Below, one piece after another: positions 32,135 to 47,835 of a DNA stretch of 64,000 bases. The notes below the pieces were generated by a model. That model had not been told where the DNA came from. It was given only the letters and a program-made list of their open reading frames with translations, and did not search any database. The number at the start of each line of letters is the position of its first letter. Within the stretch, counting starts at the first letter, position 1. The DNA comes from an uncultured Gammaproteobacteria bacterium (lineage in GTDB: Bacteria > Patescibacteriota > Microgenomatia > Levybacterales > GWA1-39-11): assembly GCA_964504535.1 (NCBI GenBank), contig CAZDED010000004.1, forward strand, positions 44,115 through 108,114, given 5' to 3'. The translations under genes were made by a program, and so were the position numbers.

Positions 32135-32854
32135 ATGTTAACCTTAAATATGGGTTATGCTGGAAAATATGACGACAGGGTTAAGGCTCAAGAGTTAAGA
32201 AAGCAAGGCCTCTCATATAACGAAATTCTTCAACAGATAAAAGTTTCAAAAGATACATTAAGCAGATGGTGTAAGGACATAATTCTCACCAAAAATCAAA
32301 AAGAAAGACTTTTAAAGAATAAGTCTTTTGGCCAAAAAAAGGGTTCACAGATTGCTGCAGACAATAAGAGGTCTAGAAGGGTAATTCATACTTCAGAAAT
32401 CTTCGAAAAATCAAAAAAAGAACTTGGTAATTTAAGTAAAAGAGACAGGTTTATATTTGGGATGGCTCTTTATGCTGGAGAGGGTAACAAATCCGACGGA
32501 AAAGCAGCTTTCGTAAATGCCAATCCACACTACATTCAATTTATGAAAACATGGTTTCAAGAATTTTGCAAAATTACAGACGATGAATTTAGAGGTTCTA
32601 TCTGGCTTCATGAGGGCAATAACGAAATAAAAGCAAAAGAATATTGGTCAAAAATATCAGGGATTCCTCTTTTACAGTTGCATAAAACTTATATCGTAAA
32701 ACGAAAAGAAAATAGTAGAAAGATAAGAAAGAATATTCACGAAAATGGCGTCTTTACAATTAAATTTTATAAGAGTGACACGCAACGAAAAATAATGGGG
32801 TGGATTTCAGCATTTCTAGGTGATAAAATAGCTAGCACTCAAGGAATTGAGTGA
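32135..32854 (+). CDS. Hypothetical DNA-binding protein: N-terminal resolvase-type HTH plus a C-terminal region with a LAGLIDADG-like motif (possible free-standing homing-endonuclease-like protein).
   Basis: HTH LSYNEILQQIKVSKDTLSRWCK; motif FIFGMALYAGEGNKSDG resembles LAGLIDADG (LAGFVDGDG); ends 13 nt upstream of the intron-containing tRNA. Confidence 0.35.
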   Translation: MLTLNMGYAGKYDDRVKAQELRKQGLSYNEILQQIKVSKDTLSRWCKDIILTKNQKERLLKNKSFGQKKGSQIAADNKRSRRVIHTSEIFEKSKKELGNLSKRDRFIFGMALYAGEGNKSDGKAAFVNANPHYIQFMKTWFQEFCKITDDEFRGSIWLHEGNNEIKAKEYWSKISGIPLLQLHKTYIVKRKENSRKIRKNIHENGVFTIKFYKSDTQRKIMGWISAFLGDKIASTQGIE

Positions 32855-32866
32855 ATTGACAACTAA

Positions 32867-33155
32867 TCCGTGATAGCTCAATGGTAGAGCAGGAAGCTGT
32901 ATAGAAATGCAGCTCCCGATAGAAATATCGAGATGAATAACTGGGCTAATTCGGGGAAATCCCAAAAGGACAATCCCGAGCTAAATTCCCAAGCGAAGCT
33001 GAGGACTTGTCCTGAGTCAGCCGAAGGATAAATGTGTAGAGACTATATACCCAGGACCTAATTCGAAAGATATGGTCATAAGATAGTCCAAGCCTTTTAG
33101 TAATAGAAGGGTTCTTGTAACTTCAAGGTTCTAGGTTCGAATCCTAGTCGCGGAG
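32867..33155 (+). tRNA. tRNA-Asn (anticodon GUU inferred), interrupted in the anticodon loop by a group I intron. Exon 1 is 32867..32900 and exon 2 is 33118..33155. No encoded CCA.
   Basis: Acceptor TCCGTGA/TCGCGGA (U1-A72, G73, as in bacterial tRNA-Asn), D-arm GCTC-AATGGTA-GAGC, anticodon stem GGAAG/CTTCA, T-arm CTAGG-TTCGAAT-CCTAG. Loop after splicing is CU-GUU-AA. Confidence 0.7.
32901..33117 (+). ncRNA. Group I self-splicing intron (~217 nt, compact IC3-like tRNA-intron type) inside the tRNA anticodon loop.
   Basis: P1 has exon ...GCUGU paired with intron GCAGC (U·G at the 5' splice site). P element aattcggggaaatccc, Q caatcccgagc, R gtgtagagacta, S aagatagtcc (GACUA/UAGUC P7 pairing). 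Terminal omega-G at 33117. Resembles Azoarcus/Anabaena tRNA introns (GAAGG.GUAGAGACUA). Confidence 0.75.
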
Positions 33156-34643
33156 CACCTTACGTCTTATTATAACGTGTTGATTTGAGTTCAATACGGC
33201 AAATATAGGCGTGTATTTGACCTCAAAAATTTCCTTGTTTTTTATTAAAATCTCCTCAAAAAAGAAGCGTAAATAATGCCTTTTTAAGAAATCTGGAGCC
33301 TGTGTATATGCTTTTTTAATATTTCTCGTAAAATATAGCACCTCTTGTATTAAATTTATGTCAATTTTATTGCCACCTTCGAGCTCATTCATTGACTGTT
33401 GTAGACTATTTAACTGCAATTCTATCTCATCATATTTGCGCTTAAAGGTATCTCGAGAAATAGACCCGTCAATCATCATGTCTTCCAACTTTTCTCTACG
33501 TAACTCGTAAGCCATTCTTTGATTTTGTATTGCTTGTTTCCTCCCGGCTAGTCCCTGTCTATTTCTCTCAACCAATTCTTTCGTCTTTAAAACAACTCTA
33601 TCTATAAACTTTTGCGTAAACTGAATTTTAGATAATTCTTTTTTAACTAATTTTTCCAAATCACCCACTTCTACATACGGAGCAGGACAACCATTTCTTC
33701 CTCTCTTTTGACAGTGATAATATGCTATTTTCCCTTTTTGTTTAGTAAATCTTTTATGCTTATGCCATTCAGCTGTATATCTCTGACCACACTCACCACA
33801 CTGGATAAAACCTCTCAAAAGAAAATTATGAACACGCCTTCTTATGAGAAAGTTCCTATGCTTTGCCAATACATACTGGCATGTATCAAAAAGTTCCTTA
33901 GAAAGTATTGGTTGGTGCTTTCCTATTTTAGCCTCACCATGCCATCTAATAAGACCGTAATAGAAAGGGTTTCTAAGGATTGTGTTTATTACGCTATGAC
34001 TCAAAAGAGCACCGCTCTTAGCCAATACATTTCTTTCACACAGCCAATCCTGTATCTCCATTATCGAATACCCGCCGGTTGCATACAGCTCAAACATCTC
34101 TTTAATTATCGGAAACATATAAGGGTCTGGTTCGCAAGACTTTCTTTCTCCGTCTCCGCCCACACTCCTATAACCTAGCGGTGGAGGTGTTGGCTGCCAA
34201 CCTTCTCTAAATTTCTGCATGAGGGCATCTTTCGTTCTTGCTCCATTTACTTCACTTTCCCATTGAGCGATGCTTGCAAATATATTTGGAATAATGCTAT
34301 TTGTACCTGTAAGGTCTCCTTCGTTCACAGACAATAGTTTTATGTCTCTATTCTTGAAATCTGTATAGAGTTGTGCAAAGTCAGCGACGTTCCTAGCGAA
34401 TCTATCAATCTTATAAATAATAAGTGCTTCAACCGGCTCGTCTTTTAACTGTGCAAGCATTTCCTGAAGCGCAGGTCTAACAGTAGTTCTTGCACTTCTT
34501 CCATCGTCTGTGAATATTCTCTTTACTTCATACCCATTAAGCTTTGCGTAGTTGGTACAAGCCAGTCTCTGATTTTCAACAGAAAAGCCTTCTCTTGCCT
34601 GCTCGTCTGTAGAAACTCGTAGGTAAATGTAACAATTTTTCAT
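33144..34643 (-). mobile_element. Large serine recombinase/integrase (resolvase catalytic domain + recombinase domain + zinc ribbon + coiled coil). Its 3' end overlaps the 3' exon of the tRNA.
   Basis: YIYLRVSTDEQ catalytic Ser motif, IYKIDRFARN, C-terminal CxxC..C zinc-ribbon (CGECGQRY...CQKRGRNGC). The probable start is the internal Met at 34643, since the ORF-track start at 34715 adds an unlikely 24-aa leader. Confidence 0.85.
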
Positions 34644-34698
34644 ATTAGTATTTAGTTCAAATTTAAAATAATGTAAGCCTATAATTATCTTATAGGAA

Positions 34699-35157
34699 TT
34701 AGTTGAGTCGTTCAACCTTGCTTAATCTTAATCCTTTCCTTCTCAAAAAATCGTCAACACTCTCAATGCTATTGGCATCATTTTTATCTTTTCTTTTTAT
34801 ATAAGTATTCTTAGTAGGAAGCTCCCTTCCTTCATTACCTGGAACTTTACTTCCAACCTGATAGGAACTCCCATTCCACTCCCTTTCAAGCTCTTTCGTT
34901 ACAAAATAAGTATTTGGCTTGTTAAAACCTGTGCGCTTTTTGGATAGTATTCCTGCTTTTATCAATTCGTCTATTAAATTTCTTATATGTCTATCTGATA
35001 AGCCCATATTCTGAGCAAGTGTTAATTGACTAGGATAACAATAATCCTTTTTACCAGCGTATTTAAGGAGTATGCAGTATAGAAATCTGGCTTGATAAGT
35101 TAGCTGTGATTCAAGAAAAATGTTGTTATCAATCATTGTAAAGTTCTTTCTTTTCAT
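34699..35157 (-). CDS. Winged-helix DNA-binding protein of the phage/plasmid replisome-organiser (DnaD-N-like / replication initiator) type.
   Basis: FLYCILLKYAG...YPSQLTLAQNMGLSDRHIRNLIDELIKAGIL pattern typical of mobile-element replication/regulatory wHTH proteins. Confidence 0.5.
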   Translation of the reverse strand: MKRKNFTMIDNNIFLESQLTYQARFLYCILLKYAGKKDYCYPSQLTLAQNMGLSDRHIRNLIDELIKAGILSKKRTGFNKPNTYFVTKELEREWNGSSYQVGSKVPGNEGRELPTKNTYIKRKDKNDANSIESVDDFLRRKGLRLSKVERLN

Positions 35158-35340
35158 ATTTATTCTTATTTATTTTTCTGTAAAAACGATTAAGAACGGT
35201 TCTAAGCCATGCTCAATCACAACAATCTCCCTCTTTTCATCTTGAGAAGAACATTTTGAATGAGTGATTTTGTAGTATTCGCCAACCAACTGGTATATTT
35301 TTTTCTTCAACAATGATATTTTCTTTGTTTCTTTCATAAA

Positions 35341-35592
35341 TTAAGAGTAGATGATTTGTTTTAAATCCTTTTGTGCTCCATAAAATCTATGGGGCTCAAC
35401 TTTAGACTTGTGAGAAAGAAAATCTTCTGTTAATTTTTTTCTTTCTTTAGTTTCTTTGAAAACAAAAATAACACGCTTTAGATTTTCTTTATTAGTTGAA
35501 ATCAATTCACAAGATTGAGAGAGTAGAAAGCTTGCTAGAAGGAAAGAATCGGTTGTAAACTTTTTTTGATTATCCATTTTTTTGATTTTCAT
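35341..35592 (-). CDS. Hypothetical small island protein.
   Basis: 83-aa ORF with no recognisable domain. Confidence 0.3.
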   Translation of the reverse strand: MKIKKMDNQKKFTTDSFLLASFLLSQSCELISTNKENLKRVIFVFKETKERKKLTEDFLSHKSKVEPHRFYGAQKDLKQIIYS

Positions 35593-35762
35593 TTTTATTC
35601 TTTTGTGTTTTTATCTCCCGTCTGATTTGGGCAAAAAGTAAGTTAACCCATTGTTCGGCAAACTCATCTATTTTTTTATCCTCATTGTCTCCATTCATAA
35701 TCTATAGCCAGTATGACGTACTGAGTGAGTAATTTGGCTTCAAAATATCAGGGGAGATTAAT

Positions 35763-36545
35763 TCACAAACCGGAGGAAATTGAGATGCTTTTGCTTAAAT
35801 CGCTTATGGTTTTTCTAATATTTGAGTCTGACGGAATAAAATTATCAGGTAAATCATTAATGTTTGCGTAGTTTTTACTTAAAGCGCCAGCTATTTTAGA
35901 GGTGTTATATTCCATGAGTGAAAGAATAATTATCTCTAAATCCCTTTTGATTATTTGTTCTTTTCTAACCCTATTTAGTGGATACTTTTCGAGTTTTTTC
36001 TGAACAGAAGATATCAGAACCCAATTTTTCTCTATGAACTCGATAAGCCCATTCTGAGTTGTATCTTTGTAAAAATTGATGCTTGCTACGCCTTTTGATG
36101 ATGTGTCGATTTCGATTTTCGCTTTATGCTTGAATTCATCTTTAGAAACAATATCTTCCATAGGGCGATAAGGGGCTGAGTCTCCAAAGTATAAGTAATC
36201 ACGCAGAAAATCGATATACCTTTTCGGGTCTAGTTTATATTTTGAACACAAATCCACAACTACATAATGGTCTGAGGTAAATGGTTTGTCGTCATCAAGC
36301 CAATCAATCCATTCGTCGTACTTTCCTTCGTAACTAGTCGTTCTCCACTTTTCAGGAACGTTTAGTTCTTTTCGCAACAAACGAATGTCCTGCCTAAAAT
36401 TACTATCAAGAACTAACCGAAGAATATTTAGAATCATTTCTTGATATTCATAAACCTGGCGTGGAGAACGTGTACTAACCCAATCCAAAAGTGGTGCTAA
36501 ATCTTTAAATAACTCCTTATCTTTGATTTCTTTCTTTATCTTCAT
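35763..36545 (-). CDS. Hypothetical protein (island cargo).
   Basis: 260-aa ORF with no family recognised. Confidence 0.4.
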   Translation of the reverse strand: MKIKKEIKDKELFKDLAPLLDWVSTRSPRQVYEYQEMILNILRLVLDSNFRQDIRLLRKELNVPEKWRTTSYEGKYDEWIDWLDDDKPFTSDHYVVVDLCSKYKLDPKRYIDFLRDYLYFGDSAPYRPMEDIVSKDEFKHKAKIEIDTSSKGVASINFYKDTTQNGLIEFIEKNWVLISSVQKKLEKYPLNRVRKEQIIKRDLEIIILSLMEYNTSKIAGALSKNYANINDLPDNFIPSDSNIRKTISDLSKSISISSGL

Positions 36546-36628
36546 TTTTATAACGTATTATATATTTTGGATTCATAATACAAAGTTATTGTAACAGGAG
36601 AATTATTATTCTGAAGGAGAAGAAACTT

Positions 36629-37135
36629 TTATTGCCACTGCCAAAAACCAAAGCGCTGTTCACAACTTGCAGCTATTTTCATGAGTTTATATTTATAAGG
36701 ATTAAATATTTCGCCTTTATCATTAACAAAATCGCTAAACAAGAATGAAGATGTCTCCCCAGATGGAATAGTATATCTTTGACTTTCAGGATTGTAGGGG
36801 GCTTTGTAATCGCTGTTTAGTGTGAAGTAACATCCCTTCCAGTCCTTGGCTTCTGCATTTGTGACATCAATATGCCCATCTTTAACAGTAACGTCACCAA
36901 CGAGGTCAGAAGTGTCCTTTACCTCCTGTGGAGAGTTTGTGGTCGATTTTGTTGATGTTGAATCAAACAAAACACCGATAAATCCTATAAATAAACAAAT
37001 AACAAAAAAGCCTATTATTGCATGCTTCAGTGAGTAGCCTTTCTTCTTTTTTGTCGGTTGCACTTCATTTCGCACCTGCGAACGATATTCCTCTTCTTCC
37101 CTTATTCTTTTCTTCTCATCTTCTGATAAAGCCAT
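36629..37135 (-). CDS. Hypothetical single-pass membrane protein with an extracytoplasmic domain.
   Basis: N-terminal charged region, TM helix AIIGFFVICLFIGFIGVLF, ~100-aa C-terminal domain. Confidence 0.4.
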   Translation of the reverse strand: MALSEDEKKRIREEEEYRSQVRNEVQPTKKKKGYSLKHAIIGFFVICLFIGFIGVLFDSTSTKSTTNSPQEVKDTSDLVGDVTVKDGHIDVTNAEAKDWKGCYFTLNSDYKAPYNPESQRYTIPSGETSSFLFSDFVNDKGEIFNPYKYKLMKIAASCEQRFGFWQWQ

Positions 37136-37237
37136 ATATATCTAAAGTATAAATATATCTGAGCATATTGCAAGCACAAAATATGGCATTCGTACCATAG
37201 TTCTAAACATGGCATAAAAGCCATACTAGGCATTAGC

Positions 37238-37444
37238 ATGGCGACTATTTATAAAAAGGTTGGAAATAATATTCGCAAACTTCGTAAGCGAGCTGGACTA
37301 TCACAGGAAGACGTTTCATCTAAAGCAAAAATAGACCTTACCACTGTAAACGAGATAGAAGGTGGACTACGAAATCCATCGCTAAAAACATTACACAAAA
37401 TATCTAACGCATTAAAAGCAGACCTCAAGGAGCTATTTAACTAG
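37238..37444 (+). CDS. XRE-family (Cro/C1-type) HTH transcriptional regulator.
   Basis: IRKLRKRAGLSQEDVSSKAKIDLTTVNEIEGG canonical HTH_3. Confidence 0.8.
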   Translation: MATIYKKVGNNIRKLRKRAGLSQEDVSSKAKIDLTTVNEIEGGLRNPSLKTLHKISNALKADLKELFN

Positions 37445-37566
37445 TTCGGCTTTTTTTCAAAATTCCATCGAAGTTGTCATAGCCTCACGGTTGCTTCAAC
37501 AATAAACCCAAGTCCGATGACTTTTATTCACTATTAATCCTTACTATTCTTATTCTAGGTATACAT

Positions 37567-40500
37567 TTGTACTACAATAAAATAATGGATAACAACCCAA
37601 AATGGCACGTAGATGAAATGATAATGGCTTTAAATGCCAACATTGAATATTTAGAAAAGGAAGGCAGTGAGAATATAAGAATAAAAAATGGTAAATTATT
37701 TACACAGTTAGCAGAAAGCTATATTTATGAATTTGAGCTTGAATTTTTACAGGAAATTGAACTTGAAAGAGAAATAGAGGTACGTGTTGGTTCCGATTCT
37801 GGAAGTGGTAAAGTCGTTTCTGTTAATGACAATTTAATTCAGGTTGAGATTGATTCTTTTTTAGGTCAAGATATACCTCAAGCGCATTTAATTATTTCCA
37901 GCTTGTATATCCTAAAGCTTCTAAGAGATAAATTAGCAGAATCCAAAGAAACAAAATCCAATGGTTCAATAGCAGAAAAGCTTTTTGGAATGCAACCATT
38001 CAGTTTCGGGTCCGACTTAGAATATCAACTTCCCCCAAGACCACTTAAGGATTCAATTGATGAATATAAGGAAGCAGCACTAAGACTATCGCTAGGTAGT
38101 GAGCTGAGCTTTATATGGGGTCCGCCCGGAACTGGAAAAACAGAGTTAATCTCCCGAATCATTGAGGCACTTATAGGAAAAGGGCTTAGCGTATTGTTAA
38201 TTTCTCATACTAATATGGCTACTGATGAAGCCCTATTGAAGACTGTGAAGTTTTTAATAGATTCTCCGGAATATAAACTTGGACAGATTATTAGGATTGG
38301 TAAAATTCATCACCAAGATTTATTGAAAACCGATTATTCTAGAATCATCCCGGAAATGGCAGCTGAAGCTGCTAGTAAGCCTATCCATGATGAAATCGGC
38401 ACACTTCAAATATTAGCAGACCAACTTAAAATAGAAATTGATGGAATAAATGAAATCCTATCTGATTCAAAATCATACGAAAACTATCAATCACTAATTA
38501 AATCGGCAACTTCTCAGCTTGATAAAACAAATCAAAAAATAACTGAGCTTGAACAGTTTTTAAAAGATACAGATGATGAAATATCTATCACAAACATTAA
38601 AATTGAGAAATTTCAAAACTCTAATCGACTATCCCAAATTTTTTCAGGACAAAGTTTAAGCAAATTAACAGATGTTAAGACACAACTACTAAAAAGTAGG
38701 GCTGCTCTAGAGGATAATATTGCTACGAATGAAAGAACCAAAAATTCTATTATTCAGGATATTGATAGTTCAAAAACAAAAGCTAACATCTTAAATGAAA
38801 AAATAGGTAGTATTGATTTTAGTAAAGCAGAAGAGGAATTATCTCGCAAGAATGATAATCACTTGAATTTGACCACCCAAATTAAAGAACTGTTATCTCA
38901 ACTTACTAACATAACAGAGCACATAATAACTGAAGCAAAGGTCATAGCAACAACGCTTACAAAAAGTTATAGCGACAAATTAGTTCTTAGCAGAGAATAC
39001 GACTGCGTTATTGTGGATGAGGCATCCATGGCTCCTTTGCCAGCACTATATTTTGCTGCCTCTATTGCCAAACAAAAGGCAATAATTATAGGCGACTTTT
39101 TCCAACTCCCACCTGTAACTAAGCACAAAGTACTCAAAAACAGAGGGAAAACTGAAGAGCAATATATGGCAGAGCAAGCCTTAGTAGATAAATGGCTTAA
39201 GGGTGATATTTTTGCAAATGCTGGTATCTCAGAACTAATAAAAAAAGGGGAATTACCGGATTATCTAAGACAGCTTAAGCGACAATACAGAATGCATCCT
39301 CAAATAGCTGAGCTCATAAATACGCTTGTCTATAATAAATACGGTAATTTTGGACTAGAATCCGCTGATATAACTCAATCTAATGGTGAAGGTGGGGAAA
39401 ATGGACCTAGGGTAATAGATGTTGAACCCCTCAAGGATTTTAGGGTGGGGATTTATAATACTAACTCCTTAAATATATATCCTGGAAATACTGACTCAGG
39501 CTCATATTACAACTTATTTCATGCACTTCTAGCAGTTGAGTTAGCAAAAACTGCGGTACGAAATGGTTATGAAACGATTGGTATTATTTCTCCATTCAGG
39601 GCACAGGCAAACCTTATAACCAAAATGGTTAAAGATGAAAAATCTTTTGATGAAACCTTAAAAGGTATTGATGTTGATACCGTACATAAGTTTCAGGGTG
39701 GAGAAAAACAGTTAATTATTTTTGACATTACGACTCCTAAGTCCACTAAATTAACTAATGATGATAAAGAAGGTGGAGATGATGAAAAACTCATAAATGT
39801 AGCTTTCTCACGAGCAAAATACAAATGCATTGTTATAGGCGACATAGAAAAAATCAGAAAGAATCAGAATGAGTCTTCTCTTCTAGTACAGTACATAGAT
39901 TTTGTTGTAAAAAAAGGCTATCCAATAATCGATGCTGGCGTAATGGTGAAAAACTACTTTCACTCAGAACAAACTGAAGATTGGTTAGCTAAAATAGTTA
40001 ATGCTAGTGATATCGAAGCAGAAAAAGACGATAGTGATATCTATAACCAAAGTGAGTTTTATAAAACGTTCTTTTCTGAAATACTAAAAACTAAACAAGA
40101 GCTTATCATTCATTCTCCATATATTACTCGCTATAGAACAGCACAATTACTTCCCATATTTGATTTCTTAAGGAAAAAGAACGTTAATATTTTTGTTATT
40201 ACACGACCTTATTTTGCACATAAAGATTCAATGAAAGATGACTCACTAGCAATGCAGCGGGAAATGGAAAAATTGGGAGTGGTTGTCTTGCCATGGGGCG
40301 GAAGTATTCATGATAAATTTGCAATTATTGATAGAGAAACTTTATGGGAAGGCAGCCTAAATATATTATCTCAGAATGAAAGCAGAGAAAGAATGAGAAG
40401 ATTTAGAGGAAAGGAATCCTCGAAACAGATGTTGGATTTTTATGGTATTAAGAAGAATATTGGAGAAATTGGGAATAATAACTTAAAGAAGTGTAGGGTG

Positions 40501-40809
40501 TGTGAGGGTCCAGGAAATTGGTTTTGGACGGAGAAAGGGATGTTTGGAATTTGGACACACTGCTTAATCGGAGGACATAAGGAAGGAAAACCACCAAGAA
40601 CTCAAGAAGATAGAGAGAGAAAAAAAGAAGAAAATAAAGAACTCAGAAAGAAAGCTAGAGAGATAAATTATGAAGGTGTTCCTCTGTGTCAAAATACAAT
40701 TCATGGTTCAGAAAAAATAGAAATGGTTAGAAGAAAAGGAAGGTGGGGAAAAGATATATGGGGATGCCCTAAATATCCTGCGTGTAAATTCTTGTTGCCT
40801 GTCAAATAA
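37567..40809 (+). CDS. Superfamily-1B (Upf1/DNA2-like; AAA_11 + AAA_12) helicase fused to a single-HKD PLD-family nuclease domain and a C-terminal topoisomerase-type C4 zinc ribbon; candidate defence/anti-mobile-element effector.
   Basis: Walker A GPPGTGKT; motif II VIVDEASM; III IIIGDFFQLPPV; IV RQYRMHPQIAELIN; VI NVAFSRAKYKCIVIGD; ~220-aa coiled-coil insertion between motifs Ia and II. PLD HxK(x)4D = SIHDKFAIID; zinc ribbon GKDIWGCPKYPACKF. Confidence 0.7.
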   Translation: MYYNKIMDNNPKWHVDEMIMALNANIEYLEKEGSENIRIKNGKLFTQLAESYIYEFELEFLQEIELEREIEVRVGSDSGSGKVVSVNDNLIQVEIDSFLGQDIPQAHLIISSLYILKLLRDKLAESKETKSNGSIAEKLFGMQPFSFGSDLEYQLPPRPLKDSIDEYKEAALRLSLGSELSFIWGPPGTGKTELISRIIEALIGKGLSVLLISHTNMATDEALLKTVKFLIDSPEYKLGQIIRIGKIHHQDLLKTDYSRIIPEMAAEAASKPIHDEIGTLQILADQLKIEIDGINEILSDSKSYENYQSLIKSATSQLDKTNQKITELEQFLKDTDDEISITNIKIEKFQNSNRLSQIFSGQSLSKLTDVKTQLLKSRAALEDNIATNERTKNSIIQDIDSSKTKANILNEKIGSIDFSKAEEELSRKNDNHLNLTTQIKELLSQLTNITEHIITEAKVIATTLTKSYSDKLVLSREYDCVIVDEASMAPLPALYFAASIAKQKAIIIGDFFQLPPVTKHKVLKNRGKTEEQYMAEQALVDKWLKGDIFANAGISELIKKGELPDYLRQLKRQYRMHPQIAELINTLVYNKYGNFGLESADITQSNGEGGENGPRVIDVEPLKDFRVGIYNTNSLNIYPGNTDSGSYYNLFHALLAVELAKTAVRNGYETIGIISPFRAQANLITKMVKDEKSFDETLKGIDVDTVHKFQGGEKQLIIFDITTPKSTKLTNDDKEGGDDEKLINVAFSRAKYKCIVIGDIEKIRKNQNESSLLVQYIDFVVKKGYPIIDAGVMVKNYFHSEQTEDWLAKIVNASDIEAEKDDSDIYNQSEFYKTFFSEILKTKQELIIHSPYITRYRTAQLLPIFDFLRKKNVNIFVITRPYFAHKDSMKDDSLAMQREMEKLGVVVLPWGGSIHDKFAIIDRETLWEGSLNILSQNESRERMRRFRGKESSKQMLDFYGIKKNIGEIGNNNLKKCRVCEGPGNWFWTEKGMFGIWTHCLIGGHKEGKPPRTQEDRERKKEENKELRKKAREINYEGVPLCQNTIHGSEKIEMVRRKGRWGKDIWGCPKYPACKFLLPVK

Positions 40810-40913
40810 TAAATCAAGGGCATAGTTTCCGAAGCATTTTCAGTTCAAATACCACAAACTTCGGATACTTTTATCATCTTTCGTTCTAATAATTTATACG
40901 CCATAATTTAGTT

Positions 40914-41132
40914 ATGGACATAGCAAAAGCAAGAAAAATATTGGAAGAGGACGGAAAGAAATTAACAGACGAACAGGTGCAACAATACATAACAACCGCA
41001 GAATTATTATCAACAATGGCGTTTGACGCATGGAACAAATTAACTCCTGAGGAACGAAAGAGGTGGAGGAAAAAGAAACAAACAAAATCCAACAGAAAAA
41101 GGATTACCAGCAAACCTCTTACGAATCGTTGA
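40914..41132 (+). CDS. Hypothetical small basic protein.
   Basis: 72-aa ORF; Lys/Arg-rich C-terminus; weak support. Confidence 0.25.
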   Translation: MDIAKARKILEEDGKKLTDEQVQQYITTAELLSTMAFDAWNKLTPEERKRWRKKKQTKSNRKRITSKPLTNR

Positions 41133-41152
41133 ACCCTAGGATTTTTTGCAGA

Positions 41153-41617
41153 CTACAAACCCAAGAGCTGCTTCTTTTTTGCTTGAAATTCTTCTTCTGT
41201 AATTATGCCCTTTTCTTTAAGTCCTGCTAATTTCTCGATTTCATCTAAAGGGCTTGCAACAGCGCTTGTTGGGCTGCCACTAATCCGTTCTTCGATTAGC
41301 AATTTTGCTTCCTCAAATTTACCATTATTGCCACCATTTGCATGAAAATTGATACTATTCTCATCTTTAGTGGACTGGAACATGCCACCTTTTGCTTCAG
41401 AACCACCAGCGAGAGTAAGCTGTATGTATCCCGCTAGCATTCCTGCTTTCTTAAGCTGAACGGCAACGATACTTTTGTATGGGATTGATTTGTCTCCCCT
41501 CAGCATACCTCCACCAAGCAAAAATCCTTTAACGCCTCTTTTTATAATTACTCCTGTTGAAGTTAAAACCAACGTCCCGTTATACCCCTTGAATTCTTTT
41601 ATATTTTCGTCTGACAT
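41153..41617 (-). CDS. DUF4429 (PH-like) + SHOCT-domain protein.
   Basis: C-terminal SHOCT motif LKEKGIITEEEFQAKKKQLLGL; N-terminal GYIQLTLAGG PH-like region. Confidence 0.55.
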   Translation of the reverse strand: MSDENIKEFKGYNGTLVLTSTGVIIKRGVKGFLLGGGMLRGDKSIPYKSIVAVQLKKAGMLAGYIQLTLAGGSEAKGGMFQSTKDENSINFHANGGNNGKFEEAKLLIEERISGSPTSAVASPLDEIEKLAGLKEKGIITEEEFQAKKKQLLGL

Positions 41618-41665
41618 ATTGCTTGAGTATATTTAATTCTGTATTTTAATACAACAACTTTTCAA

Positions 41666-41935
41666 CTAAGAGTCCATTCTCTTGAAAATATCTTTAAGCT
41701 TTTTCCCAATCTCTATATACTCATTCTTTTTTGCCTGCTGACTAATTTCATCAATATACCTTGAAGATAGTCTCACCAAGCAACTTGCCCCAAAAACAAG
41801 TGCCTCATCCAAGTCTTTTTTTGCAATTTCTTTATGATTGTCCGTACTCATAAAAGAAATTACATCTAAAGGGTTCAAATGATTTTTTCTATTGCAATGG
41901 ATGTATCCTCTTGAAGTAAGCTCTATGTCATTCAA
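41666..41935 (-). CDS. Hypothetical protein (TTG start in the ORF track; uncertain).
   Basis: 89-aa ORF abutting the upstream 178-aa ORF in a different frame. Confidence 0.25.
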   Translation of the reverse strand: MNDIELTSRGYIHCNRKNHLNPLDVISFMSTDNHKEIAKKDLDEALVFGASCLVRLSSRYIDEISQQAKKNEYIEIGKKLKDIFKRMDS

Positions 41936-41937
41936 TG

Positions 41938-42474
41938 TTATTTTGTACTTTTTTTCTTGGATTTGATTGCTTCAGCAAGAATAACCAACATTTTATCAAC
42001 GTCCATACCTATCCATGAATGAAGGTCTGTGCCCGAAGGACGGTGAGTAAATTCCTTTTTTACTTTTTTATATTTCCTATCAATGTCTTTTATATCTTCT
42101 ACAGAAAAGCCTAACAAACCAACCGGATTGAGCCCAAGCCTACGAACAAACTCTAACTCCTCGTGCATCTGCACTGACAGAAAACGCTTGAATTTTCGGG
42201 CAAGCCTCCTTTTGCCAAATGCGACCATATACTCAATAGCAACTGTGTCTTCAATCATTGCTCGTACTAAATCTAATGCCTTATCTCCAAATAATTCATT
42301 TTTTGTAGCTAAAAATCTCACAGAAAGTAAAGAAAATACATTTCTTCTATATATGCCTTCAAAAATATTAAGAAACTGATTTCCGTCAGGAGGGTGGTGA
42401 TTTGTTGCAAGTGGATTTACTAAGTCCAACAACTCATCAACGGTCGCAAGTAGTTCATCGGTAGTGCCTTTCAT
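41938..42474 (-). CDS. Hypothetical protein.
   Basis: 178-aa ORF with no family recognised. Confidence 0.35.
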   Translation of the reverse strand: MKGTTDELLATVDELLDLVNPLATNHHPPDGNQFLNIFEGIYRRNVFSLLSVRFLATKNELFGDKALDLVRAMIEDTVAIEYMVAFGKRRLARKFKRFLSVQMHEELEFVRRLGLNPVGLLGFSVEDIKDIDRKYKKVKKEFTHRPSGTDLHSWIGMDVDKMLVILAEAIKSKKKSTK

Positions 42475-42544
42475 TTGAGGTTATTATAACCTATTAAAAA
42501 CGGCTCGCTTTTTTACAATAGTTCGTAGTGATTTGAACTAAATC

Positions 42545-43726
42545 GTGTTATACTTCGATGAATTCCTGCCCAAAGGCAGGTTTTTTTGTATGAATTGGGT
42601 TCCCATAACTTCTATCTTTACAATTTTAGCTTTCTACGTTGCATGGGCTGCATTTTACATTGAAAGAACTAGTAAGCTCCGTGGAAAAAGAGAAGAAAAA
42701 ATAGATATTCTTAAGTCAATTGAAAAGGAACTATCACTTATGGGTAGTTGGCTAGGTGAGAACTATAACGATGCAAATTACACTCAACTACAAGACCCAT
42801 GGCACCCATTTCATATGGTATATGGGCTTGTAAGGAATGATGCGATTAAAAACGCGATATCTTTGAAATCCGTATCGCTTCTTTCAAATGATTTGCTTGA
42901 GGCACTCGTCGCTTTTAATCAAAAGATGGGAGGGTTTGAGCAGCACGTCAATAGAATGGTCCAATTTAATACTTCAGACCCCATCATAGCAACAAAGGCT
43001 TTCTATTATTACGACAGCACTTTTGCTAAATATTCAAGACCTAAGAAATGGCTAGAGTTTGAAAAGCTTGCAAAGAAACTGTTTACGGGCAAAAGATTAC
43101 TCCCAGAAGAAATCCATCTTGTTGGGAGCGTAAGAATCCTAAAAGACCTTCATGTTATTGGGATTGGAGATGAAAATAATCCTACGCACTTACGGTTTTC
43201 CTATGTAATAGTTAGAGACATGGTAAGGGTCGAGTTAGCTGAAGTTTCTAGGGAAAAATTGTTTAGGCAGCCACGGTTATTTTCAATGCTTGATGCACTC
43301 GTGGCATTCTCCTTTGTTGCGCTTCTTGTCGCGATTCCTGTTTTCACAGTGGAAGGAGGTGTATTGATAAAAAATATGAATTCTATTTCATTTTTATTAC
43401 CGTTAATTTCAATAATCGCTGTTAGTATATTTCTAGGATTGATAAAGTATGCTTCAATCGCTAGCAAGTATATTGGCACCCCATGGCAATCTAAATTTGC
43501 CGAAATTTGGAATGATACACTTAATTTTCTCTTAGCGGGGCTCGTTGGATATTACTTTGTTTTGGTAAGACTGCCAAAACTATTGGCGGGAGAGAGTGTC
43601 GGTTTAAGCGATTTCGTGTTGTTCTTTATATTCGCAATGGGTATGTTCGGACATTTATGTGTATTATCTAAAAATACGACCGAAGGCGTTCAGGCTATAA
43701 TGGAAAAGATTATTGGAAGACACTAA
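42545..43726 (+). CDS. Hypothetical polytopic membrane protein.
   Basis: One N-terminal TM helix plus ~4 C-terminal TM helices flanking a ~200-aa soluble domain. Confidence 0.4.
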   Translation: MLYFDEFLPKGRFFCMNWVPITSIFTILAFYVAWAAFYIERTSKLRGKREEKIDILKSIEKELSLMGSWLGENYNDANYTQLQDPWHPFHMVYGLVRNDAIKNAISLKSVSLLSNDLLEALVAFNQKMGGFEQHVNRMVQFNTSDPIIATKAFYYYDSTFAKYSRPKKWLEFEKLAKKLFTGKRLLPEEIHLVGSVRILKDLHVIGIGDENNPTHLRFSYVIVRDMVRVELAEVSREKLFRQPRLFSMLDALVAFSFVALLVAIPVFTVEGGVLIKNMNSISFLLPLISIIAVSIFLGLIKYASIASKYIGTPWQSKFAEIWNDTLNFLLAGLVGYYFVLVRLPKLLAGESVGLSDFVLFFIFAMGMFGHLCVLSKNTTEGVQAIMEKIIGRH

Positions 43727-44423
43727 TCCTTTGATACAATTCAGCACTATGGCTCACATGGTACCATCAAAATATTCCGCAGCATCAGAATTGCGCGCAA
43801 TCGCTCTTGGAAGAGTTGCAAAGAGCTTGCCCTGCTATGGCGCTCTACCGGTGCCAATAATGAGGCTTTTGGTCGACGAACAGCTATTACTGGAATCTGT
43901 AAAGAGAACCACATTCAAGGGAAAGGTGGAAATTATAGACTTACGCGGAGAAAATACTGAATATCTCGACGAGGAAGAACCTGCAACAATTGCATATAAT
44001 GACTATAGCTTTGTAATGGCACCGGCATATAAAGCGTTTGAAGGATACCTAATTTTTCTTTCTGATACCTTTGGGCTTCCAACTGAAACTTACAAAAACA
44101 GAATCGGAGGGCTCTATGATTGGGAAGCAAATGCAGCAGCTGAAAAGGAAATAGTTGAAGCTCTTGAAGCCAAGCTTGGTACTGACAAAGAAGGAAAAGA
44201 CCGTTGGAGAGAATTAAGCATGGTTCTACGAACATATCGACATAATCCTGCACATTTTTTAGGAGACAAAGTCGGAACATTCGAGCAAGCAGAGGATTGT
44301 GCAAAAGCGATATTGAATACAATAAATCAAATGACAAAGTATTTAATCGATAAGGAAGTTTTGCACGATGGCGACAAGGAAGACGAAGCAATTTGTGATG
44401 TTAATAATGAGCAGGTTCGCTAA
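43713..44423 (+). CDS. Hypothetical protein.
   Basis: 236-aa ORF overlapping the upstream gene by 14 nt; no family recognised. Confidence 0.4.
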   Translation: MEDTNPLIQFSTMAHMVPSKYSAASELRAIALGRVAKSLPCYGALPVPIMRLLVDEQLLLESVKRTTFKGKVEIIDLRGENTEYLDEEEPATIAYNDYSFVMAPAYKAFEGYLIFLSDTFGLPTETYKNRIGGLYDWEANAAAEKEIVEALEAKLGTDKEGKDRWRELSMVLRTYRHNPAHFLGDKVGTFEQAEDCAKAILNTINQMTKYLIDKEVLHDGDKEDEAICDVNNEQVR

Positions 44424-44510
44424 TTTCTTTTGAAAGCTTTTTTATCTCTTCCCATCTCTGCCTTAGTTCTCCAGTCTGGCTAGAATTTTGGAACGTGAGT
44501 ATAATATTGT

Positions 44511-44573
44511 CAGGGATGGGGAGCACCACTTTTTAGCCTCAATTTTGTCATACCCCGAGTAGGACGATCGAAC
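44511..44573. repeat. Copy A of a ~60-bp direct repeat; contains ggagcacc, identical to the 3' end of the tRNA-Asn gene (candidate decayed att site).
   Basis: Alignment by eye: ggggagcacc-ac-tttttagcctcaatttt-g-tcataccccgag...cgaacc versus copy B. Confidence 0.5.
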
Positions 44574-44578
44574 CTAAT

Positions 44579-45289
44579 TTATTGAAGATCGTCAAAAAAT
44601 TCTTGTTCTTTCTCTCCTAATGGTTTTATAACAGTTAGGAAATTTATGCTTAGTCCCTTCAATCCAGTCTGAACACGAAAGTCATCGCCACAGTCTCCTT
44701 CTGAGATAGGATATTCAGCTAACGCAGATCTGTTCAGTCCGATCACAACACCTCTGCTTTTTCTTGCTTCAAGAACAGCTTCACGAATTGTTTCTTCAGA
44801 TAAATTAAATGATGAGAGAGCTGTCCTTGCTTCTCTTGTAAGGAGATTATCATATTCATATTCCTCTACCAGATTGGATGCTACATGAGCATGCGGTTCG
44901 ATTGGTAATGAAAGGTGGCTCAAGAAACGATGTCCTTGTGCATTAGTTTCAGCAGAACCTTCACTGACAGAAATTGCGTAATCTGTACCATAATTTGCGA
45001 CATCTGACCCCTCAGGCAGTTCCTCGTATGGGAAATTACTCGCTGGAGTGAAGTATACATCTCCGATTTGTGGTACTTCAGGCATACCTGCATATTGAGG
45101 ATTTGTACAACCTGGGATCACGCCCCTCTGTAGAAGTACTTTCACGGTCTCGATGCTTGTTCCATGATAGGCGATACAATCCTCAGAAATTAACGGTTCT
45201 TTAGATAATCGTACAAGCAAGCCTTTTCGATATTCAACTGATTGATATTCAGCCGCTGGTATTACTCTGTTATCAGATTCATTAATCAT
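44579..45289 (-). CDS. Hypothetical protein.
   Basis: 236-aa ORF between the two repeat copies. Confidence 0.4.
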   Translation of the reverse strand: MINESDNRVIPAAEYQSVEYRKGLLVRLSKEPLISEDCIAYHGTSIETVKVLLQRGVIPGCTNPQYAGMPEVPQIGDVYFTPASNFPYEELPEGSDVANYGTDYAISVSEGSAETNAQGHRFLSHLSLPIEPHAHVASNLVEEYEYDNLLTREARTALSSFNLSEETIREAVLEARKSRGVVIGLNRSALAEYPISEGDCGDDFRVQTGLKGLSINFLTVIKPLGEKEQEFFDDLQ

Positions 45290-45397
45290 GCTCCGAATTA
45301 TACATAATTATTCATATAATAGGTTCTGACATTTTCTATCAGGGGGAGCAAATGATTTTCGATTGACGTCGTTTTTATTTACTGCTAAAATCCCTCC

Positions 45398-45652
45398 ATG
45401 ACTGAAATTACTCCAAGCTGTCCTGCAGGAAGTGGAGAGTGCCCCGTTGAATGTCCTATTTATTTCGCTGCAGTAAACTCTATGCCTCCCATTGAGGAAA
45501 TCGACCCATATATGATGCGCTTGTCTTTGCTATTTGCCGATGCATTTAATCATGAAATTAAGGTTGTTGATATAGCAAATGTGTTAAGTAGATGCATGAA
45601 AGAAACAGGAAGGAATTACCTTCAAGAATTGAGTGATAATAATCAACTCTAG
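45398..45652 (+). CDS. Hypothetical small protein.
   Basis: 84-aa ORF, Cys-rich N-terminus (CPAGSGECPVECP). Confidence 0.3.
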   Translation: MTEITPSCPAGSGECPVECPIYFAAVNSMPPIEEIDPYMMRLSLLFADAFNHEIKVVDIANVLSRCMKETGRNYLQELSDNNQL

Positions 45653-45663
45653 TTTTAAACTGG

Positions 45664-45736
45664 CGGGAGTCCTAGCGGGGGAGCAATGTATTTTTAGCCT
45701 CAATTTTTCTTCAACCCCAGTTGGATGCTCGAACCA
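45664..45736. repeat. Copy B of the ~60-bp direct repeat; its 5' part (gagtcctagcgggggagca) resembles the T-stem/acceptor 3' strand of the tRNA-Asn (candidate attR-like remnant).
   Basis: Shares tttttagcctcaatttt, accccag and cgaacc with copy A in the same orientation. Confidence 0.5.
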
Positions 45737-46060
45737 TTTGTTATAATGTCTTCATCTGTGAAGTACAACGAATACAAAATTAATACCATTGTTTGGTTGT
45801 ATCCCAGCATGGCTGGGTGGCACTTTGTAACAATTCCGGAAGATGTGTCTGATGATATAAATCATCAATTTGGAGATAGAAAAAGAGGGTGGGGCTCTCT
45901 ACCAGTTAAAGCAACAATCGGAAAGACCACATGGGAAACATCCATCTTTCCAGACAAAAAAACAAATACGTATCTTTTACCTGTCAAAAAAGGAGTGAGG
46001 AAAAAGGAATACATTAAAGCAGATACTAATGTATTATTAGTACTTGAAATAAAAGCCTAG
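45725..46060 (+). CDS. DUF1905-family protein (YdeI/OmpD-associated). The true start is probably the internal Met MSSSVKYN.
   Basis: Family-typical ~100-aa beta-rich pattern (WHFVTIPEDVSDDI...LPVKA). Confidence 0.5.
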   Translation: MLEPFVIMSSSVKYNEYKINTIVWLYPSMAGWHFVTIPEDVSDDINHQFGDRKRGWGSLPVKATIGKTTWETSIFPDKKTNTYLLPVKKGVRKKEYIKADTNVLLVLEIKA

Positions 46061-46094
46061 TGGCTTTCAAAGATCTGGTACAATACCAACATAT

Positions 46095-46502
46095 ATGAAA
46101 ATAGAAGATAGAACAAAAGATAATCCATGGAAATTGAAAACCCCCCCACTTTCCTCAGAATACGAAATGTATATTGACGAAAAAGAAGGTTCAAAAGTCA
46201 TCGTATGCGTAGTTGGTAAAACAACATTGCTTTATGACTACGATGCAATTGCCGATTTATACCAGATGCTAAAGTCTCATGGAGATTGGATGGAATTAGG
46301 TGGAGCAGACGAGCAGAAGCCAACAAAAGAAGGGACTGTTGAAGACTGGGGACGTTCTTCTAAAAACCCTAAAGGTGGTTGGTATGGTTTGAAAAAAGGA
46401 CTTCGTGGAAGATTTGGCGTATACATGCCACCACTACTTGAAACGCTTGGATTAGCTGAGCTTGAGCATAACCCAAGGAATAATAGAATGAAAGCTAAAT
46501 AA
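46095..46502 (+). CDS. Hypothetical protein.
   Basis: 135-aa ORF with no family recognised. Confidence 0.35.
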   Translation: MKIEDRTKDNPWKLKTPPLSSEYEMYIDEKEGSKVIVCVVGKTTLLYDYDAIADLYQMLKSHGDWMELGGADEQKPTKEGTVEDWGRSSKNPKGGWYGLKKGLRGRFGVYMPPLLETLGLAELEHNPRNNRMKAK

Positions 46503-46522
46503 CGCTTCTAGCTAAATCAGGA

Positions 46523-46762
46523 CTATTTATCTTCTGGCAGTGCATCAAACTCTTTGCGTTTTTCATCCATCCATTTTTGCATTGCTTCAGGGTCTTTCAT
46601 TTTCTCTTTCATTTGTTCCATCGCTTTCAAATGTGCGTCATCTCCTTTTTGGAACATCTCTGCTCCATGTTGTTGGCTGAGTTTGGCCATTTCATCAAAT
46701 GTTTCAGCATGAAACTCCATATCACAAGCACCTGCCAACTGATTACATGTCATTGTCTTCAT
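46523..46762 (-). CDS. DUF1059-family small metal-binding protein.
   Basis: MKTMTCNQLAGACDMEF start typical of DUF1059. Confidence 0.55.
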   Translation of the reverse strand: MKTMTCNQLAGACDMEFHAETFDEMAKLSQQHGAEMFQKGDDAHLKAMEQMKEKMKDPEAMQKWMDEKRKEFDALPEDK

Positions 46763-46907
46763 AAATTTTTACCTCCTTCCCATAAACATTATACATTAGG
46801 ACGGATTTTGGAGAGCTGTAGCAGCATAATAGGTTCTGAACGATTTCATTAAGTGGGGCAAAACAGAAGCTCTTTATCATACTTCTTCAATTTGATATCA
46901 TATAACT

Positions 46908-47333
46908 ATGGCGACAATAAATCCCTGGATCAACTTCAATGGTAATGCTGAGGAAGCATTTACTTTTTACAAATCAGTATTTGGCGGTGAATTTACGAAA
47001 GTGGTACGTTTTAAAGATATCGCAACTGAAGAATTCCCAGTAGATGAAAAAGAAGAAAATAAAATTATGTATATCTCTTTGCCCATCGGTAAAGAGAATA
47101 TGCTAATAGCAAATGATGTTCCTGAAATTATGGGACGAGTAAATGAGCAGGAGAACAGAAGCAAGATTTCAATAAATGCGGAAAGTAAAGAAGAGGCGGA
47201 CAAATTGTTTACTGGTTTATCTGAGGGCGGAGAAGTAGAAGGACCCATGGGAGACAGTCCTTGGGACTCATATGCGGGCATGTTTCGGGATAAATACGGC
47301 ATTGAATGGATAATAGAATTTTCTAACAAATAA
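46908..47333 (+). CDS. VOC (glyoxalase/bleomycin-resistance) family protein, PhnB-like.
   Basis: Characteristic NFNGNAEEAFTFYKSVFGGEF N-terminus of PhnB-like VOC proteins. Confidence 0.6.
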   Translation: MATINPWINFNGNAEEAFTFYKSVFGGEFTKVVRFKDIATEEFPVDEKEENKIMYISLPIGKENMLIANDVPEIMGRVNEQENRSKISINAESKEEADKLFTGLSEGGEVEGPMGDSPWDSYAGMFRDKYGIEWIIEFSNK

Positions 47334-47334
47334 C

Positions 47335-47835
47335 ATGAGTCGACTTATTACATGCATCTGGTTTTCCAACAATGACGGGGAAGAGGCAGCAAATTACTAC
47401 ATAGACACTTTCAATTCTGCTCCAGGTAATCACGAGGGAAAAATTGGAGACATCACAAAATCACCTAAGGCATCTGAAGAAGTTTCTGGTAGACCTGAAG
47501 GGTCAATTTTGACTGCAGAATATGAGTTGGATGGAATAAGTTTTATGGCTCTTAATGGTGGCCCCGTTGATCAATTCAAACTTAACGGCGCAACATCTTA
47601 CATTATTGAATGTGAGACGCAGGAAGAAATTGACTACTTCTGGGAAAAACTTTCCGCAATTGCCGAGGCAGAGCAGTGCGGATGGTGCACAGATAAATTC
47701 GGGGTCACATGGCAAGTAGTCCCAAGGATTTTAGATGAGATGATGCGCGATCCTGAAAAAGCTGACGCTGTAACAAATGTCTTTATGCCAATGAAAAAAC
47801 TTGACCTTGAAGCAATCCGAAAAGCTGGTGAATAA
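47335..47835 (+). CDS. VOC-superfamily protein of the 3-demethylubiquinone-9 3-methyltransferase-like (PhnB-like) type.
   Basis: CIWFSNNDGEEAANYYIDTF start and C-terminal WGVTWQVVP pattern typical of the family. Confidence 0.55.
   Translation: MSRLITCIWFSNNDGEEAANYYIDTFNSAPGNHEGKIGDITKSPKASEEVSGRPEGSILTAEYELDGISFMALNGGPVDQFKLNGATSYIIECETQEEIDYFWEKLSAIAEAEQCGWCTDKFGVTWQVVPRILDEMMRDPEKADAVTNVFMPMKKLDLEAIRKAGE

Follow-up and report, generated by a model that had tools for sequence, protein, structure and literature searches.

A compact group I intron at position 35/36 of a tRNA-Asn(GUU) gene: a further member of a published intron family

Does a group I intron interrupt the anticodon of a bacterial tRNA-Asn gene, and would it splice there? 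The question is raised by a 64-kb stretch of DNA from an uncultured bacterium (64,000 nt of contig CAZDED010000004.1, here called the window), in which the two halves of a tRNA-Asn(GUU) are separated by 217 nt. Our analysis indicates that the window very probably encodes a precursor tRNA-Asn(GUU) in which a compact group I ribozyme of 217 nt separates U35 from U36; this ribozyme belongs to a known lineage of introns at this site (35/36). Before 2020, the listed bacterial tRNA hosts of group I introns were Leu(UAA), fMet, Ile(CAU) and Arg(CCU), and the preliminary description of this DNA had considered a tRNA-Asn host unusual and not yet described. That view has to be given up. The four classical settings were extended to 21 tRNA/site settings with tFind (Williams, 2020; bioRxiv 10.1101/2020.01.27.920355), and the Asn.4Ug class of that work is cited in a study that describes group I introns at 35/36 of tRNA-Asn(GUU) as typical of Patescibacteria (Nakagawa et al., 2026, mSystems; PMC13011429).

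With default settings, ARAGORN reported no tRNA in the 64-kb window. With introns allowed, it returned a tRNA-Asn(gtt) at 32867–33156 with an intron denoted i(35,217), placing the splice sites exactly where the preliminary description had proposed them, after 32900 and after 33117. The Rfam model RF00028 (Intron_gpI) matched the forward strand at 32891–33110 over its entire length (model positions 1–253 of 253), with a score of 58.0 bits (E = 4e-12) where the gathering score is 50; no other Rfam family exceeded its threshold in the window. The 5′ exon contains the 5′ strand of the acceptor stem, the D arm, the 5′ strand of the anticodon stem and C32 U33 G34 U35. Its final base, U35 (32900), is the U at position −1 of the 5′ splice site. 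The 3′ exon resumes with U36 A37 A38 and contains the 3′ strand of the anticodon stem, the variable loop, the T arm, the 3′ strand of the acceptor stem and G73 (33155). Joining 32867–32900 to 33118–33156 in silico produced a clean 73-nt tRNA-Asn(GUU) cloverleaf with the predicted anticodon loop CU-GUU-AA, U1-A72 and G73, blemished solely by a G27·A43 mismatch; ARAGORN called this joined form tRNA-Asn(GUU), too. CCA is absent from the window gene, in which CACC (33156–33159) comes after the discriminator G, as in two relatives described below (L006 and L012). GCCA ends most of the Patescibacteria tRNA-Asn genes in Table S3 of PMC13011429. The intron (32901–33117) contains no open reading frame (ORF).

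The P, Q, R and S elements of the group I core are all present at the positions given in the preliminary description (Table 1). The helices were read from the sequence and are consistent with both the Rfam alignment and the minimum-free-energy (MFE) fold. Unconstrained folding yielded −63.7 kcal/mol (z = −3.45 relative to 200 shuffles) and recovered P1, P2, P3, P4, P5, P8 and P9. The proposed pairing of the 5′ exon with an internal guide (GCUGU:GCAGC) extends to AGCUGU/GCAGCU. The 5′ splice site is marked by its U35·G32909 wobble, which all 93 of 93 aligned sequences share, and the next P1 pairs (G-C, U-A and C-G) are kept in 92–93 of them. At the other end the intron closes with G33117, the predicted terminal G. 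The 5′ strand of P7 (33039–33045) reads G-A-GACUA and holds the presumed guanosine-binding site. Only four nucleotides, UAUA (33046–33049), separate P7 from the 3′ strand of P3, leaving no P7.1/P7.2 insertion. P8 carries a motif, CCUAAU..UAUGG, that resembles the 11-nt GAAA-tetraloop receptor and occurs in 8 of 113 family members; we infer that the GAAA loop of P2 (L2) docks onto it.

Table 1. Coordinates of the intron-split tRNA gene, its ribozyme elements and the flanking features in the window
Feature	Position	Strand	Sequence or description	Evidence or conservation
tRNA-Asn(GUU) 5′ exon	32867–32900	+	UCCGUGA..GGAAGCUGU	Sequence; ARAGORN intron mode; in-silico splice
Group I intron	32901–33117	+	217 nt, ends in G; between anticodon positions 35/36	RF00028; ARAGORN i(35,217); covariation
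tRNA-Asn 3′ exon	33118–33155	+	UAACUUC..UCGCGGA-G	Sequence; ARAGORN
P1	32895–32900 / 32909–32914	+	Exon A30–U35 (AGCUGU) / guide (GCAGCU)	Covariation alignment; MFE
P2 hairpin	32917–32921 / 32926–32930	+	5 bp, GAAA tetraloop (L2)	MFE
P3	32941–32945 / 33050–33054	+	CUGGG / CCCAG	100% paired, 3/5 pairs compensatory
Element P	32948–32963	+	aattcggggaaatccc	
P4	32951–32956 / 32974–32979	+	Within elements P and Q	97–99% paired, compensatory changes
J4/5	Between P4 and P5		AAA	
P5	32960–32962 / 32968–32970	+		83% paired
Element Q	32971–32981	+	caatcccgagc	
P6	32980–32981 / 33034–33035	+	G32980·U33035, C32981-G33034; P6a/P6b extension	99.5% paired
Element R	33034–33045	+	gtgtagagacta	
P7	33039 + 33041–33045 / 33084–33089	+	3′ strand UAGUCC; bulged A 33040; parts of R and S	
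P8 hairpin	33055–33058 / 33074–33077	+	GACC/GGUC outside, GAAA loop	97.8% paired, 3/4 pairs compensatory
Element S	33080–33089	+	aagatagtcc	
P9.0	33090–33091 / 33115–33116	+	A33090-U33116, A33091-U33115	97.8% paired, both pairs compensatory
P9	33093–33099 / 33104–33110	+	GUAA loop	94.1% paired, all 7 pairs covary
omega-G	33117	+		
239-aa protein, unknown function	32135–32854	+	Homologues in Patescibacteria	Weak HTH_23 match alone
Direct repeat, attL side	33152–33159	.	GGAGCACC, 8 bp; tRNA positions 70–73 + CACC	
Direct repeat, second copy	44520–44527	.	GGAGCACC; right end of island	
Integrated island	33160–44527	.	~11.4 kb	Empty site in L006
Large serine recombinase	33144–34715	−		Pfam Resolvase 4e-34, Recombinase 8e-16, Zn_ribbon_recom 6e-12
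Helicase + PLD-nuclease protein	37567–40809	+	1080 aa	SF1 helicase AAA_11/AAA_12, C-terminal PLD nuclease

We scanned one genome per GTDB species with a degenerate pattern made up of the 3′ strand of P7, the terminal omega-G with UAA directly after it, and the T arm. Homologous introns were found at tRNA-Asn 35/36 in at least 120 other species (loci L015–L134), far beyond what chance would produce. Among the matches listed, 112 loci were usable; 113 introns were extracted, and 93 were aligned (the window and 92 others). All 112 usable loci share the arrangement ..YUGU|intron..G|UAA, most of them with a GCAGC guide, and omega-G is present in 113 of 113 introns, although the search pattern required it. 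For most of these loci ARAGORN in intron mode gave tRNA-Asn(gtt) and a 35/36 intron; it called the others Thr(tgt/cgt/agt), Asp(gtc) or, once, His(gtg), with the boundaries slid. By record title, 26 of the 120 matches listed belong to the candidate phyla radiation (CPR)/Patescibacteria. The remaining 94 are labelled Nitrospirota, Acidobacteriota, Elusimicrobia, Cyanobacteria, Deltaproteobacteria, Gammaproteobacteria, Clostridia/Eubacteriales, Planctomycetes, Omnitrophota, Binatia and others, and such titles of metagenome-assembled genomes are not all reliable. Two listed matches are labelled Woesearchaeota archaeon, probably through mis-binning. Intron lengths range from 179 to 604 nt among the matches listed, with a cluster near 550 nt in which, as the published sequences show, some members carry an HNH-type ORF. 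A survey of complete genomes counted 9 non-Patescibacteria among 28 introns at 35/36 (PMC13011429). Our scan suggests that the family is much wider in uncultured bacteria than that survey indicates.

The alignment of the 93 members provided a test of the helices. It was made with MAFFT, which is blind to structure, and pairs were counted for the structure derived from the window. Standard pairs fill 88.5% of the cells as opposed to 75.9% after shuffling, a value reached by none of 500 shuffles. The covariation score was 0.374, compared with 0.131 for shuffles and 0.06–0.22 for registers slid by 1–3 columns. Double-sided changes occur in 29 of the 49 pairs; the first pair of P3, for example, alternates between UA, CG and GC, and both pairs of P9.0 switch among AU, GC and CG. 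The poor alignment scores of P2 and P6a arise only from MAFFT displacing helices whose length varies. Scanned directly, 90 of the 96 sequences whose guide can be recognised contain a P2 hairpin of 4 bp or more, which nearly always carries a GNRA loop, and a GNRA loop also caps P9 in most members of the family. The other 92 members share 71 columns with a conservation of 90% or more; the window intron has the consensus base at each of them (71/71), and its catalytic core therefore looks intact.

Three further searches were made. An exact 42-mer spanning the 5′ splice site had no match in the contigs of species-representative genomes, so that this exact variant is present in no species representative. 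A metagenome scan with a 19-mer from the P6 extension returned one partial homologue and four chance matches. In viral sequences, a scan with P7 motifs found no relatives of the window intron, only unrelated group I introns.

The surroundings of the gene were then compared between relatives. In 7 of 7 syntenic relatives, no more than a few bases lie between the 239-aa gene that precedes the tRNA in the window and, downstream of it, a tRNA-Asn(GUU) with a group I intron at 35/36. The intron measures 192 nt in two metagenome contigs (L006 and L008), in which the neighbouring protein is identical and the DNA ~92% identical to the window. It measures 200 nt in GCA_041906695.1 (L012), 187 nt in the complete Daviesbacteria genome CP066688.1 (L014), 233 nt in GCA_964500725.1 (L135) and 200 nt in GCA_035480415.1 (L137). 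In a Roizmanbacteria locus (L136) it is 199 nt by our own count at 35/36, where ARAGORN miscalls Asp i(37,179). RF00028 scored 59–68 bits in the four syntenic loci tested. Set beside L006, its closest relative, the window chiefly shows 25 additional nucleotides in the peripheral hairpin of P6 and changes in loops; a similar P6 extension is found in one scan locus (L020). Since the same intron occupies the same locus behind the same upstream gene in all seven relatives, its inheritance in this clade appears to have been vertical, along with the tRNA that hosts it.

This pattern indicates something other than a recent insertion. An intron newly acquired by homing or horizontal transfer, possibly together with the integrative island that adjoins the tRNA, would be in keeping with the many phyla that the family spans and with the HNH-type ORFs of its ~550-nt members. 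The window intron has no such ORF, synteny extends to relatives with only 63% identity in the flanking protein, and the intron is equally present in three relatives that lack the island (L006, L012 and L014). Moreover, the boundary of the island coincides with the tRNA 3′ end, 35 nt downstream of the intron. We consider a recent arrival very unlikely.

It is likewise highly improbable that the intron is a decaying, dead relic within a tRNA-Asn that is either a pseudogene or reliant on another RNA-processing activity. The window does lack the P7.1/P7.2-like element of most relatives, its P6 extension is lineage-specific, and the anticodon stem contains the G27·A43 mismatch. Against this, every one of the 71 highly conserved core columns is intact, and the compact form is common to 24 other species, across which covariation is kept. 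The differences from the 92%-identical L006 are confined to loops and peripheral hairpins. Searching the window yielded no other tRNA, this one being missed by standard tools, and according to PMC13011429 the intron-bearing gene is typically the sole tRNA-Asn in Patescibacteria. Splicing two bases upstream (33/34) to give a tRNA-Thr(UGU) has a next to negligible probability: although ARAGORN and tFind call some members this way (ARAGORN gave Thr(tgt/cgt) i(33/34) for 20-odd family members among the matches listed), the intron end ..UUG followed by UAA lets a 2-nt slide also give a 7-nt loop, and PMC13011429 reports the same ambiguity, the intron would then end in U33115 rather than G with the invariant U·G wobble off the splice site, ARAGORN itself calls the window locus Asn, U1-A72 and G73 fit tRNA-Asn, and the sequenced ligated exons of a homologue place the junction at 35/36 (PMC13011429).

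A spliceable tRNA-Asn precursor is the reading we prefer, and some observations weigh against it. The GACUA/UAGUC pairing of P7 and its bulged A are invariant in 91–93 of the 93 sequences, but the 3′ strand is part of the search pattern, which partly imposes this invariance and makes it, in the lack of any variation, uninformative on covariation. P10 is not evident, as U36 A37 A38 find no complement 5′ of the guide sequence; exon alignment would then depend on the tRNA body and P9.0. The number of tRNA-Asn copies was judged within the 64 kb of the window. Self-splicing at the window locus is argued by analogy with a homologue tested in the literature, and this homologue, a Saccharimonadia construct, carries a P7.1/P7.2-like insertion of 30–60 nt (PMC13011429). 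The compact window intron is without it, and the two are consequently not structurally identical.

Splicing would proceed as follows. The gene would be transcribed, probably together with the gene upstream, and the intron would then fold into the canonical P1–P9 core. The last bases of the 5′ exon, AGCUGU, and the guide GCAGCU would form P1 and bring the U35·G wobble into the active site, where a free guanosine held at P7 could attack after U35. The terminal G33117, placed by P9.0, would take over from the free guanosine, and the 3′-OH of U35 would attack after G33117. The exons would thereby be joined into a mature tRNA-Asn with the loop CU-GUU-AA.

The upstream neighbours of the tRNA are dnaG, a sigma-70 (sigA-type) gene and the 239-aa ORF, the tRNA beginning 12 nt past the stop codon of the last. 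Elsewhere, too, the 239-aa gene is often found after dnaG-sigA. A promoter/terminator scan detected no sigma-70-like promoter on the forward strand upstream of the tRNA; that no promoter-like site lies between the 239-aa gene and the tRNA suggests co-transcription of the two. The database form of the protein has 234 aa (P0001), the callers having started five residues downstream. Its homologues are 57–78% identical, with E-values down to 1e-116, and the named ones come from Candidatus Daviesbacteria, Roizmanbacteria, Saccharimonadales and the "Patescibacteria group". Because these named homologues are Patescibacteria, the host chromosome is probably that of a Microgenomates-like member of this group, judged from the names on homologues and not from a phylogeny. 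The synteny with the Daviesbacteria genome CP066688.1 points to the same group. A Firmicutes/Bacillota host, considered on account of the dnaG-sigA context, was ruled out by the same homologues.

The preliminary description had also named the tRNA as the integration site of a mobile element, and this proved correct. Similarity between the window and L006 stops exactly at ..GGAGCACC (33159), and in L006 the sequence immediately after the tRNA matches window positions 44520–44576 (84% over 57 nt). An insertion of 11.4 kb at the 3′ end of the window tRNA follows from this reappearance, with an empty site in the close relative and 8-bp repeats flanking the insert. A search of the window for longer direct repeats of the 3′ end of the tRNA found none; the island is bounded by the 8-bp repeat alone, as expected for a serine-recombinase site. 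The large serine recombinase gene lies at the left end of the island, and the five codons with which it closes (KVLRD*) overlap the 3′ end of the tRNA. The cargo includes a 1080-aa protein with a superfamily 1 (SF1) helicase and a C-terminal phospholipase D (PLD) nuclease. Among the PADLOC models, those for Mokosh match it (MkoA, E = 4e-63; MkoC, E = 1e-44), and it is, by this similarity, probably a type II Mokosh-like anti-phage gene. Further cargo consists of helix-turn-helix (HTH) proteins, a DUF5659 protein, a SHOCT/DUF4429 protein and a DUF5677 protein. A large serine recombinase adjoins the same tRNA in L135 (2453–3696) and L136 (2420–3687) too, and the 3′ end of this tRNA is accordingly a hotspot at which integration recurs in the clade. 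We saw no functional link between the intron and the attachment site, which is located in the 3′ exon.

To the right of the island follow ~2.8 kb of variable genes (44528–47331; DUF1905, DUF6855 and another glyoxalase-like gene). The next gene in the window (47335–47835, 3-dmu-9_3-mt/glyoxalase family) corresponds to the gene that follows the tRNA in L012, and L006 diverges from the window again ~57 nt after the tRNA. Together, the variable genes and this divergence make the region 3′ of the tRNA a general variability hotspot. Elsewhere in the window, the segment 24001–26000 has a GC content of 0.50 against a background of ~0.37, and no Rfam match falls there.

Viral contigs of 105–166 kb, the size of jumbo phages (IMG/VR UViG 3300045988; L002–L005), contain a class II tRNA interrupted by a 241-nt insert (L004:3280–3607, forward strand). 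Removing the insert gives a tRNA-Leu(UAA), which ARAGORN recognises in the spliced form only. Core motifs of group I introns, GTGTAGAGACTA .. AAGATAGTCC, lie in the insert, whose last base is G and which follows U33 (33/34), not the classical 34/35.

To which subgroup the window intron belongs is less straightforward. An insertion of more than 6 nt between P7 and the 3′ strand of P3, resembling P7.1/P7.2, occurs in 68 of the 93 aligned members. Its frequency fits the IA label of the lineage, and nearly all 35/36 introns are classed as subgroup IA in PMC13011429. The other 25, the window included, are without it; the window and the 24 further compact members are mostly labelled Patescibacteria and have ~4 nt between P7 and P3. 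The window intron therefore fails the IA hallmark of P7.1/P7.2 helices. Its architecture is IC3-like, with GAAA in L2, a receptor-like P8, a GNRA loop (GUAA) in L9 and the stretch GUGUAGAGACUA, and yet its sequence relatives are classed IA1. A first guess of IC3 membership, based on Azoarcus-like motifs, was tempered by the P7.1/P7.2-like insert of the relatives and by the IA1 class given in the tables of PMC13011429. Judged by sequence, the intron would be of the IA1-classed lineage by descent and a reduced form by architecture.

The window intron and its ~24 relatives of 179–225 nt might form a distinct, reduced sub-lineage of the IA1-classed tRNA-Asn intron family that has lost P7.1/P7.2, a few members, the window intron among them, showing an Azoarcus-like L2(GAAA)-P8 receptor clamp; the relatives are mostly labelled Patescibacteria, and we put this forward tentatively and hold it to be somewhat doubtful. 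If true, it would offer a natural example of convergence, by a ribozyme of the IA lineage, towards the minimal architecture of IC3, and the compact introns would be among the smallest natural group I ribozymes. This question of the compact form is the only mildly new aspect of the locus. Otherwise it adds one more vertically inherited, compact example, free of a homing endonuclease gene, to a family known to self-splice, and changes no concept. With default finders reporting no tRNA here, such a genome would appear to lack tRNA-Asn and its completeness estimate would suffer, a point about annotation gaps that has already been made in the literature.

Compared with known systems, the window intron is closest to the published tRNA-Asn 35/36 family, with which it shares host tRNA, insertion site, U at −1, omega-G and phylum. 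Also common to both are the GCAGC guide, AAUUC..GGAA, (G/U)AGAGACUA, GAGAUAGUCC and GNRA loops on P2 and P9; 'agatagtcc' alone occurs 19 times in the Table S3 sequences of PMC13011429, alongside the same motifs as in the window intron. Standard annotation misses the published genes as it does that of the window. For one member, the intron of a Saccharimonadia tRNA-Asn (GCA_016700035.1), in which the intron-bearing gene is the sole tRNA-Asn copy of the genome, GTP-dependent self-splicing was demonstrated in vitro, with sequencing of the ligated exons and an omega-G-to-C mutant as negative control (PMC13011429). The tested construct shares the core motifs ggttcagagacta ... gatgagatagtcc with the window. 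A Microgenomatia entry (GCA_016700135.1) has an anticodon arm, GGAAG/CUUC, identical to that of the window. One of our scan loci, CP006914.1 (RAAC2_WWE3_1; L016), is also a row in the published tables, classed IA1 (Table S5). Unlike the published family, the window intron has the lineage-specific P6 extension. The genome and locus of the window are not among the table entries consulted, and the intron is a previously uncatalogued, ordinary member of a published and experimentally validated family. The same tables hold a tRNA-Asn(GUU) 35/36 intron from Bacillota_A (GCA_022846035.1; Table S5), the sole such case in that phylum. It sits in the same tRNA at the same site as in the window but is classed IC3 and has a differing core, ..gtgtagagactttac .. 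gaagacaaagtcc.., and is on that ground an independent lineage at the same site in another phylum.

The island, in turn, resembles other tRNA-targeting islands of large serine recombinases: the recombinase adjoins the tRNA 3′ end, a short repeat regenerates that end, a relative has the empty site, and the cargo is defence-like. It departs from the typical case in that the target tRNA gene contains an intron.

The group I intron of cyanobacterial and plastid tRNA-Leu(UAA) is of subgroup IC3 and lies at position 34/35. Like the window intron, it is of the self-splicing group I type, sits in a bacterial anticodon loop and passes down along with the gene that hosts it. The tRNA, the site and the lineage of the intron differ. 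The intron in tRNA-Ile(CAU) of Azoarcus sp. BH72 belongs to subgroup IC3 (Reinhold-Hurek and Shub, 1992). It is similarly compact (~200 nt) and located in a bacterial tRNA anticodon loop, and it has a GAAA-capped P2, a P8 with the receptor-like motif CCUAA..UAUGG and a GNRA-capped P9. The stretch GUGUAGAGACUA in J6/7-P7 is identical in the two, and both are without P5abc and P7.1/P7.2. The Azoarcus intron differs in its tRNA and its insertion site (36/37), and the nearest relatives of the window intron are classed IA1, not IC3. The resemblance between the two ribozymes may have come about by reduction or convergence.

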